Origin: Yuukianura sp. NJ FZ-2021
Lineage: Eukaryota
Direction of reading: 5' to 3'
Assembly (NCBI GenBank): GCA_046563655.1
Contig: CM102289.1
Location: 5,828,001 to 5,892,000, forward strand
DNA length: 64,000 bases
The position numbers and the translations under genes are program-made. Under the pieces are notes generated by a model, which did no database searches, was not told the origin of the DNA, and saw only the letters and a program-made list of their open reading frames with translations. This document shows, piece by piece, positions 16,001 to 19,000 of this stretch. How positions within the stretch are numbered: the first letter of the stretch is position 1; every line of letters starts with the position of its first letter.

Positions 16001-19000
16001 CTTTTCTTTGATCTCAGCATTTGTGTCTTCAGTGACTACGGTGGATTCAACCTGAGTGAAAAGTTTTGTTTCAAAAAAAATTATTTTTTTTTACAATTTT
16101 GGAATTTTGAAAATAAATTTACATTTCTCAGTGGTTGCATCTGAACAAAGGTCATAGCGTGACCTGAAATAGATTGCTCCAGAACCGTCGTGTGCTCACG
16201 CATGCTGAACGTGAATCCTGAAATGTTTTCAATGACGAGGTCAACGAAGTACTTAACGGCCTCCTCAGTTTCGTAAACAGCTTCGTCAAAGTATGGGGCA
16301 AACTTGGCTTCTTCCAAAATTGGAGTTTGATTCTTCAGAAATTCCAAATAACACATCTTAAAATTGCAAATTTTTTTTTAGAACAGACTCTCAAATTTTG
16401 TTTGCACTAACGAGAACTTTCTTCGGCGCTACACTAGTTTTGAGTCCCTTGATTTCAACTCCGGCGCATGAAATCGTCTCAAACTTCTTCTCGACTGTTA
16501 CTGCAACCCCTAGAAGAAAATAAAGTTTGAAAAAATTTCACTCCAAAAGTGTTTCTTTTAAAATTTTAATTCTGTTATATTTTTTTAAATCATACCAAGT
16601 ATAATTATAAAAACAAATCATATCTGTTTACCTTCAGTTTCACTTCCGTTGTTGATTTTTATCATGTTTAAGAAATTGGTTGGGTTGATGGTGACCTTCT
16701 GCAGAAGAGTTGGTACAATCGGTCCACGACCTTCTTTGTAGGCAATTGGAAATTGAAGCATTGTGTCGAGAAATCCAACCCAGTTGTCTTTCCATACAAT
16801 GTTGGCCCAGTGACCTTCGTTGTCAGCCATCTTTATGCCTTTGAACACCCCATCATAATCACAGCCTTGGAGATGAAGCCTTTTGTAAATGTCTTCTGAG
16901 GACAATGGCAAATGTTTGGAAGTTTTTGGTTCTGCCAAGTGTATCTGCGTCTGAACTGTATTGTGTCCCAGGCGAACCTTGCCAGTTACAGCAGTGGAGT
17001 CACCTTGGTTTATTTGAAAATCCCCGGTCTTGTCAGCAATGCTGACGTTGAGTTTCGCCGTTCCTAAAATTAGAGACATTCATGGTTTTCGTATGTCCTC
17101 ATTAAACAATTTTGAGATTTCTGGAATGCTTCAATTCATGGTGTTTCATCATACCTTCTTTTGGAATAATTGTGGCCGTTTCGTATCGAACATTTTCAAA
17201 CACTACTGGCAATTCAATGTATGGTTTTCCATGAAGACTGGCAAATTTCTTCCAGACGAGCACAAGGTATCCGGTGGCGGGATACAAAATACGACCGTCG
17301 ATGTTGTGCCCAGCGAGGTACGCGTCGGTTTCCTTGTTTAGTGAGACTTCAACAGTGGATTCTCCAGCACCACTGGAATTCTAAAAAAAAATTTATGAAA
17401 CTGCTATTTATTTTTGAAAAATGGTGAAATGTTTAACTTACAAACAAGTAGTCGGGAAGTGGATACGTCTGACTATGGTCCCATTTCACAAGTGGAGAAA
17501 TCATTGGCGTCTCAACCGAAACTGGAAATTCCACTTTGGGATAAAGTGGACTTAGGTCGACGTTGTAGCCAAACTGATACATTTTTCCAACTGCCGTCAG
17601 GAATTGCGTTACATTGTTGCCACTTCCTTTCCTCATGAGTCCGACAACATTGCATGTTGGAGGTAGAGCCTTCTTGAGCATAGAGACGAACAGCGCATGA
17701 GCAGCGACTTCCAGTACCACAGCATTGGCTGGAATGTGCTTCACGGTGGAGTGGAACAGCACTGGTGACCTCATGTTGTTGATGACATATTCGGCGTTGC
17801 TCATTGGTTTGTCCCAGTCCTCTTCTGGACGTGAACTACTCTTCCATTTCTGTGACCTTGTGTTTGTGTTTACCACAATTCCGCGTGTGTGGGCTTCAAA
17901 CGTTGGCAGAATCGGAGAGAGGTAGGGGCTGTGGTAAGCCACGCCTCCAGTGGAAACTTCGCGTGCAAAAATGTCTTCGGCCTTGAGCTCTTCGACGAAC
18001 TTTTTGATCTCGTCGGCTGGTCCAGACACGGTAACGTTTCGTTCCCCGTTGTGGCATGCTGGAAAAACGCCTTCTGGACAACGGGCCTTAGCTTCTTCCC
18101 ATGTTAGTCCAACTGCCGCCATGGCTCCGCCGCTGACCCTCATCACACATTCGTCTTTGAAAAAGTAGCACACGAGACAGTCACGGTGGCTGATTACTCC
18201 GTCGATGTAGGCACATATCAACTCTCCAGCTGAGTGACCAATGAAACCGTCCGGTTTAAGTCCAATGGCAGTTAACATGTCGACGAAGGCAACCTACGGG
18301 GGTAATGCCGGTAATACTAATAAAAATTGGAATTTTTTAATTAAAAAATTTTCTTTATTAAACTTACACCCATGGCTACCAACGCAGTGGACATGTGCTT
18401 GTTGAGAAGTTCGTCATCCCCTTCTAGCAAGACGTGCATCAAGTCCATTCCAAATGGTTTTAAAATTTCATATGATTTTTCGATGGAGTCTGCAAACATT
18501 TGAATTTCCATCAGGTCTTTGGCCATTCCACGCCAAAGCGTTCCCATTCCAGAGAAGACGAACCAAAGTGGCGGCAAATCAGTGGGAACTTCCTGAAAAT
18601 TTAGAACAGAAAATCAGTGTTGACTATTTTAAAAATTTTTGAAAATTTTGCTAAGGTCAGCATTACCTGTATTTCGGTAACTGGAGTATCTCCTTCATTC
18701 AAAATAGCGTATCCACGGTAGTGATGTCCAGGAGTTGTAATTTCACTGATTTTTTGAAGAAGCGTTTCAAATTCAAAGTGTCGCGGCATGGTCGAAATCT
18801 AAAAATGCAGAACAATATTTCAACAAATTCGAAATTTAGAAACTGAAAAATCAGTTTAGTAAAAGTTATGATTGCCTTTGAAAGCGCGTATTGCACAGTA
18901 TCCTCAGTTATTCCAGAAAATGGAACCATGACCGGATATTTTGGAACGTCAATGCAGAATCCTCTCTTCTCATTGGCATGAATGATGACATGAATGTTGG

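Follow-up and report, generated by a model that had tools for sequence, protein, structure and literature searches.

A natural lysine at the malonyl-binding arginine position of the AT domain in thioesterase-less, FAS-derived synthases of Yuukianura sp.

Does an FAS-like enzyme choose its substrates differently when the arginine that grips the malonyl carboxylate in its AT domain is replaced by lysine? The question is raised by a stretch of 64,000 nucleotides from Yuukianura sp. NJ FZ-2021 (GenBank assembly GCA_046563655.1, contig CM102289.1, positions 5,828,001 to 5,892,000 of the forward strand), here called the window, in which two tandem FAS-like genes were found. In ATs that load extenders, Arg606 is regarded as almost invariant, so that a Lys form found in nature and kept by selection offers a test case. 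Rules that would tell which substrates animal FAS-like synthases load, or how those without a thioesterase (TE) release their product, are lacking.

Results

Two tandem genes with Lys at the Arg606 position

Both genes lie on the minus strand and, as modeled, consist of 18 exons. Copy 1 (13022..20656) encodes 2055 aa in an open frame without internal stop, and copy 2 (22091..29720) encodes 2053 aa with the same architecture and 93.5% identity to copy 1. Matches from tblastn and Pfam gave the domain order KS-AT-DH-inactive linker domains-ER-KR-ACP for copy 1, with no thioesterase. The catalytic residues and motifs of KS, AT, DH, ER, KR, and ACP are all present in the sequence, and the nucleotide-binding motif of the ER was found in both copies. 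The window genes resemble canonical animal type I FAS in the order KS-AT-DH-ER-KR-ACP, the MAT fold, the catalytic Cys-His-His and Ser-His residues, and the DH, ER, KR, and ACP motifs. Whole-gene dN/dS between the copies was 0.15. The ER region (14632-15641 versus 23686-24695) is nearly identical, with a dS of ∼0.017 over codons 1250-1750 and 91-100% identity in introns 14-16, compared with a dS of 0.23-0.39 elsewhere; recent gene conversion over this region is therefore likely. Intron 6 of copy 1 (18799-18875) has a GC donor (GC-AG), and copy 2 has GT.

The main AT exon spans 17442..18293 in copy 1 and 26521..27372 in copy 2, both on the minus strand. It carries S581 (18231-18233), A582, K606, D607, Y682, H683 (17931-17933), and R740 in copy 1, and S581 (27310-27312), K606, and H683 (27010-27012) in copy 2. 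A sequence-only reading of the window had reported Lys in place of the malonyl-binding Arg in both copies, and the codons, the exon translations, and a gapless register with the mouse enzyme all agree with it. Read directly on the minus strand, the two Lys codons differ as reported: AAA at 18156-18158 in copy 1 (model residue 613) and AAG at 27235-27237 in copy 2 (residue 611). In both copies the Lys stands 25 places past the catalytic Ser of the AT. A phmmer alignment to mouse 5my0 set residue 1 of the AT exon at 561 and ran gap-free to beyond residue 51, with exon Ser21 on S581 and exon Lys46 on R606. The structure prediction proposed as a check was performed with AlphaFold2 and a 90-sequence alignment. 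The resulting model (mean pLDDT 91.1), which comprises the main AT exon only and is without side-chain coordinates, places Lys46 inside helix 36-50 of a MAT-like fold and superposes on human MAT 2jfk with Z 30.1 and an rmsd of 1.2 Å over 254 residues; pocket shape was taken from the alignment. The same reading had stressed that Lys is kept across a synonymous change. The two codons are real, but retention between the window copies is weak evidence, because AT-exon dN between them is only 0.007. Judged from the sequence comparisons, the weight of Lys retention comes from the more distant members of the clade described below.

Rarity and descent of the Lys form

The residue at position 606 was counted straight from the active-site motif in animal FAS-like ATs outside the Lys clade. 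From 414 distinct proteins, 45 of them without the motif, 369 were readable, a count that leaves out 20 proteins of >4000 aa (bacterial-type modular PKSs) and six Lys-clade rows. Arg was found in 362/369 and Lys in 0/369; the remaining seven had Gln (three) and Tyr, Ile, Met, and Trp (one each). Alignment with arthropod FAS ATs had been named as a check, and frequent Lys in ordinary enzymes of this kind would have spoken against the reading. Lys is not frequent there: canonical insect-type FASs had Arg in 118/118 cases, with 1/119 lacking the motif. An apparent Lys in P0240 proved to be a BLAST gap artifact, and the direct count gave Arg. Non-Arg residues at or near the position occur in separate lineages of animal FAS-like ATs (P0166, P0244, P0223, P0204, P0032, P0045, P0097, and P0305), which have Gln, Trp, Tyr, Ile, and Met and, in one mite protein, Asn by BLAST. 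No named full-length Lys-type protein was returned by the protein searches, a weak negative since one search was dominated by canonical insect FASs, and Atlas searches returned generic AT clusters only. The arthropod section of the AFPK survey PMC10764717 does not mention the Lys form, and no natural Lys606 FAS was met in the literature searched, which covers few subscription papers. By these comparisons a natural Lys form of Arg606 was not found described before, and the synthase departs from canonical FAS and looks like a specialized synthase of the animal FAS-like kind.

At least 26 AT matches were found in the Yuukianura genome. Four FAS-type genes have Lys, namely the two window copies, a gene on contig C2 with 86% identity, and another on contig C3 with 50% identity; four FAS-type genes have Arg, and one NRPS-fused AT has Ala. 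A fifth Lys gene lies on a metagenome contig, L045 (88% identical, intron positions the same). Lys was thus present in 5/5 clade genes with a readable site, with the codons AAA, AAG, AAA, AAG, and AAG. In a FastTree analysis of 73 KS-AT rows, the five Lys genes formed one group with an SH-like support of 100. The Arg-type gene on contig C6, the only TE-bearing one of the genome, joined insect FAS with a support of 98, and the Lys clade fell outside the canonical clade. A canonical gene in this place suits a non-insect hexapod, probably a springtail. The paralogue rows of this tree were assembled from separate tblastn hits, a single short row was discarded, the deep branches have weak support, the row names "mammal" and "roachlike" are guesses, and the FAS-like KSs outside the canonical clade stand there without labeled AFPK reference rows. 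A quick tree grouped three fragments of 67-70% identity (P0123, P0265, and P0266) at 95 with four of the Lys genes; the fragments start past position 606 and bring the clade to eight members.

For the two window copies, AT-exon dN/dS was 0.031 at a dS of 0.23; from these copies it was 0.11 to the C2 gene (dS 0.54), 0.047 to L045 (dS 1.7-2.2), and about 0.1 or less to the C3 gene, where synonymous sites are saturated. Such ratios indicate that the Lys clade is under purifying selection. The other Lys sites of the AT exon were kept at 13/16 positions against L045 and 3/6 against C3, and none changed to Arg. On the combined sequence evidence, the window genes are recent tandem copies within an older, lineage-specific clade of FAS-derived, TE-less, fully reducing synthases.

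The NRPS-fused, FAS-type AT heads a very long NRPS-like frame at L044:3762-4957 (G000 C7, ∼240 kb before the window). Its motif His is replaced by Phe and the Arg606 position by Ala, and it has Ala582 and Glu607 as in the Lys clade. This AT was considered as kin of the Lys clade and rejected: a quick tree put it on the Lys side but on a very long branch, and its best 25 BLAST matches hold no Lys gene.

Changes in the AT pocket and the KS gate

The Lys is accompanied by other changes in the AT pocket. The spacing between G498 and S581 was 81 in 5/5 Lys genes, compared with 83 in 112/118 and 84 in 6/118 insect-type sequences. MAFFT set the two-residue gap at Phe553-Val554; its exact placing depends on the alignment, but Phe553 and Gln560 were gone in all readings tried. 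Gly560 was found in 5/5 Lys genes (Gln in 117/118 of the insect set), Asp or Glu607 in 5/5 (Gly in 117/118), and Leu502 in 4/5 (Gln in 118/118). Ala582 (L582A) was likewise present in 5/5, and it occurs outside the clade too, in 3/118 insect-type sequences. In the window, the first AT exon (18368..18592 in copy 1 and 27448..27672 in copy 2, minus strand) carries Q502L (18536-18538 in copy 1), the two-residue deletion at the Phe553 segment, and Q560G (18368-18370 in copy 1).

In the KS, Phe takes the place of Ala160 directly before the catalytic Cys161 in both window copies (19965..19970 and 29045..29050, minus strand), and Leu replaces Phe at gatekeeper position 395 (19008..19010 and 28094-28096, minus strand). 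All five Lys genes have Phe or Tyr at 160 (insect Ala, 116/116), Ile or Met at 200 (insect Phe, 116/116), Leu or Ile at 395 (insect Phe, 119/119), and Cys or Gly at 137 (insect Arg, 110/116). Phe or Tyr at 160 was absent from all other fetched proteins outside the clade, and positions 200 and 395 also vary in other divergent FAS-like proteins. As judged from the aligned residues, both substrate-choosing sites, the AT pocket and the KS gate, are rebuilt. All of these linked changes map to one branch in the sequence comparison and count as one evolutionary event, not as independent trials.

No clade-specific compensating Arg common to all five genes was found in AT residues 495-800; Arg at 699 and 708 occurs in Arg-type rows as well. 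Residue 740, a lining residue of the mouse acyl tunnel (PMC6954729), is Arg or Lys in 7/8 clade members. It is also Arg in 75/79 bacterial modules, and the main Arg is still there in almost every one of these. R/K740 is a candidate compensating charge that could add charge at this tunnel-lining position. Tyr682, before the catalytic His, is present in 6/8 clade members and missing from 2/5 Lys genes; it is frequent among divergent FAS-like ATs (49/95).

Absence of a thioesterase

The four complete Lys genes end soon after the ACP, and the L045 gene is partial. The distance from the ACP Ser to the protein end is ∼40 residues (Ser codons at 13142..13144 in copy 1 and 22211-22213 in copy 2, minus strand), compared with a median of 341 in the insect set, where 0/116 fell below 100. 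A tblastn search for the TE over eight stretches matched the contig C6 gene only, and no match was obtained in the Lys genes. Three other TE-less paralogues of the same genome keep Arg, and TE loss therefore does not need Lys. One TE-less FAS-like gene of the Arg type, at L037-L038 (G000 C7:3182000-3198000), has Trp395 and Ser200 in the KS and is weakly sister to the Lys clade.

Discussion

Substrate choice and product release

The altered starter or extender choice proposed for the locus gains from the finding that Lys is joined, throughout the clade, by alterations of the AT pocket and of the KS gate and by TE loss. In mouse MAT, R606 is described as gripping the extender carboxylate and swinging out for octanoyl, with its freedom governed by F553 (PMC6954729). 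The premise that mutation of this Arg favors non-carboxylated acyl-CoAs holds for rat R606A, in which octanoyl transfer goes up, but not for mouse R606A, in which it goes down, with an octanoyl kcat/Km of 7.6e3 versus 5.6e6 for the wild type, as given in the same source (PMC6954729). A switch to non-carboxylated acyl-CoAs is not implied by Lys alone, because Lys is still positive and the R606A effects are not uniform. The engineered MAT mutants (R606A in rat, mouse, and human 2jfd, and reportedly R606K in rat) concern the same position; they are single laboratory changes, whereas the Lys genes carry a naturally occurring substitution that is under selection and surrounded by a rebuilt pocket. 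The rat R606K enzyme reportedly keeps about a tenth of malonyl transfer.

We favor, tentatively and at somewhat under even probability, a specialized fully reducing synthase whose AT binds a carboxylated extender via Lys yet admits larger neutral acyl groups. Lys606 would be a weaker and more mobile counter-ion, and the AT would keep loading a malonyl-type extender. Iterative synthesis requires a carboxylated extender, and 5/5 genes retain a basic residue at this position, so Lys most likely still binds the extender. The lost bulk (the Phe553 segment, Gln560, and Leu582) would open space for a neutral acyl group of greater size, which could be a preformed starter or a finished chain handed back to CoA. 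In the KS, F395 and F200 form the gate and are reported to clash with β-oxidized and unsaturated chains (PMC6954729), and mouse KS activity is reported to be abolished by A160V (PMC11720392). The altered gate (A160F/Y, F200I/M, and F395L/I) would fit a chain that is not simply saturated, and the product would be a specialized lipid rather than palmitate. The enzyme thus probably makes an unusual lipid instead of ordinary fat.

Several points weigh against this reading. The linked changes are a single event, and mouse R606A argues that removal of Arg need not favor long acyl groups. Three TE-less paralogues keep Arg, R/K740 could add charge, the extender is picked by the KS and not the MAT in mouse FAS (PMC12267109), and the AT selectivity of animal FAS-like PKSs is described as not predictable from motifs, the choice of EcPKS2 having been mispredicted (PMC10515154, PMC7280274). 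We weighed it against another account, somewhat unlikely in our judgment, in which Lys was fixed early as a tolerated substitution, the pocket adapted, and the AT is an ordinary malonyl/acetyl loader, any new product being owed to the KS and TE loss and not to Lys. Lys preserves the charge, the reported value for rat R606K points the same way, and the other Lys residues of the exon are mostly kept as well, at the fractions given above for L045 and C3. In mouse FAS, moreover, the MAT accepts methylmalonyl and malonyl to a similar extent and does not limit selectivity (PMC12267109). Yet Lys, a single transition away from Arg, is missing from all 369 other ATs, it has not reverted over saturated dS, and the deletion and several non-conservative changes are concentrated at the same pocket.

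A more specific form of the favored reading concerns product release, and we regard it as distinctly doubtful: the Lys-type AT would be a malonyl/long-acyl transferase that loads the extender via Lys606 and, by way of the widened pocket, returns the finished chain from the ACP to CoA. The malonyl/palmitoyl transferase of fungal FAS loads the extender and returns the product to CoA; it retains Arg and belongs to a different architecture. A dual transferase of this kind would explain a TE-less enzyme, and for bovine FASN a TE-independent release of C4-C8 chains by reversed transacylase loading has been proposed (PMC11816880). If this were true, an animal megasynthase would have swapped its TE for its own remodeled AT. 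It would thereby have arrived at the same solution as fungi, and its direct product would be a specialized acyl-CoA.

The extender itself could instead have changed, with AT and KS favoring methylmalonyl-CoA, so that fully reduced, multi-methyl-branched chains, of the type present on the cuticles of some springtails, are made and released by a partner enzyme. Esters with a 2,4,6-trimethyl pattern and a hexamethyl ether do occur in springtails (PMC11321324), the ER, DH, and KR motifs are intact, there is no TE, and Tyr precedes the catalytic His in 6/8 members, like Tyr706 of the methylmalonyl-using EcPKS2 (bioRxiv 10.1101/2024.07.22.604177). EcPKS2, however, keeps Arg630 according to the same source, and Tyr682 is widespread among divergent FAS-like ATs and missing from some of the Lys genes. 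In trans-AT PKSs, moreover, the residue ahead of the KS Cys is Ala or Gly where substrates are branched or bulky and Met where they are linear, with one exception reported, so that a bulky residue there speaks for linear chains (PMC7619045, PMC10098928). We consider a methylmalonyl switch unlikely. Very unlikely is an AT that only primes or edits while malonyl is loaded by another enzyme. Arg and several neighbors were lost together, and the genome has another FAS-type AT, with Ala606, heading an NRPS. That AT is not nearer the Lys clade by BLAST, however, and no trans-acting AT was seen among the 26 own-genome AT matches linked to these loci. In ATs that load only a starter, Arg is replaced by an uncharged residue, and first modules showed Trp, Gln, and His at the position; the Lys genes keep a basic residue in 5/5. 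An artifact or decay, through misalignment, sequencing error, or pseudogenes, is hardly credible. Copy 1 needs its one GC-AG intron, but the register is gapless, two Lys codons are used in five genes from two genomes, both models are open over their 2055 and 2053 aa, and the whole-gene dN/dS is low.

Relation to known synthases

Unlike canonical animal type I FAS, the window genes combine Lys606, the Phe553 deletion, Q560G, and G607D/E in the AT with A160F/Y, F200I/M, and F395L/I in the KS; they lack a TE and belong to a separate clade. They share with the AFPKs, among them EcPKS1 and EcPKS2 of Elysia chlorotica, a derivation from FAS and, as in EcPKS1/2, the lack of a TE, and the AT exon model matches EcPKS1 equally well (Z 30.4). 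Their place outside the canonical clade in the FastTree analysis may be a further likeness to AFPKs. Most Lys-clade members also have the Tyr before the AT His that is reported for EcPKS2. In contrast, EcPKS2 retains Arg, and EcPKS1/2 are described as having no working ER, where the window genes have an ER motif. Arthropod AFPKs as a rule carry a TE, according to Lin et al. 2024 (PMC10764717). Multi-methyl-branched esters and ethers occur in some springtails, as do cyclopropane hydrocarbons derived from fatty acids (PMC11321324, PMC10825826), and the Lys-type synthase is a candidate source of unusual fatty-acid-derived lipids of springtails.

Genes around the tandem copies

An AMP-binding acyl-CoA ligase gene lies at 34348..38541 on the plus strand (end approximate). 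Its library match is PRK12583, and we take it to resemble ACSF2. The predicted first 50 residues contain 6-7 Arg/Lys and one acidic residue, a composition, and composition only, by which the N-terminus looks like a mitochondrial presequence. The genome has other ligase matches on C5 and, far from the Lys gene, on C2; no homologue was found in 12 flanking stretches (∼10 kb) around the C2 and C3 Lys genes and upstream of the window. Given the presequence-like N-terminus and the lack of a homologue beside the C2 or C3 Lys genes, the idea that this ligase is dedicated to the synthase is not supported. Directly upstream of copy 2 lies an α/β hydrolase gene (31616..32803, minus strand) with an intact GxSxG (Ser codon at 32267), a possible trans-acting release partner by its position and motif. 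It has about eight paralogous loci in the genome, and no homologue was found in the flanks of the C2 or C3 Lys genes.

Upstream of the C2 Lys gene, a gene of the fatty acid hydroxylase/sterol desaturase family was observed (L029:3511-5121, minus strand). Within the window, a LINE-type element at 5973-9741 (plus strand) comprises an ORF1-like frame and a 981-aa endonuclease/reverse transcriptase frame. Downstream of copy 1, at 11466-12351 (minus strand), lies a gene with a 233-aa frame that matched nothing in Pfam and nothing informative in Atlas. The frames in 39500-64000 presumably belong to an SPT5-like gene (minus strand), zinc-finger genes, a condensin-like gene (plus strand), and an ABCA-type transporter (minus strand).
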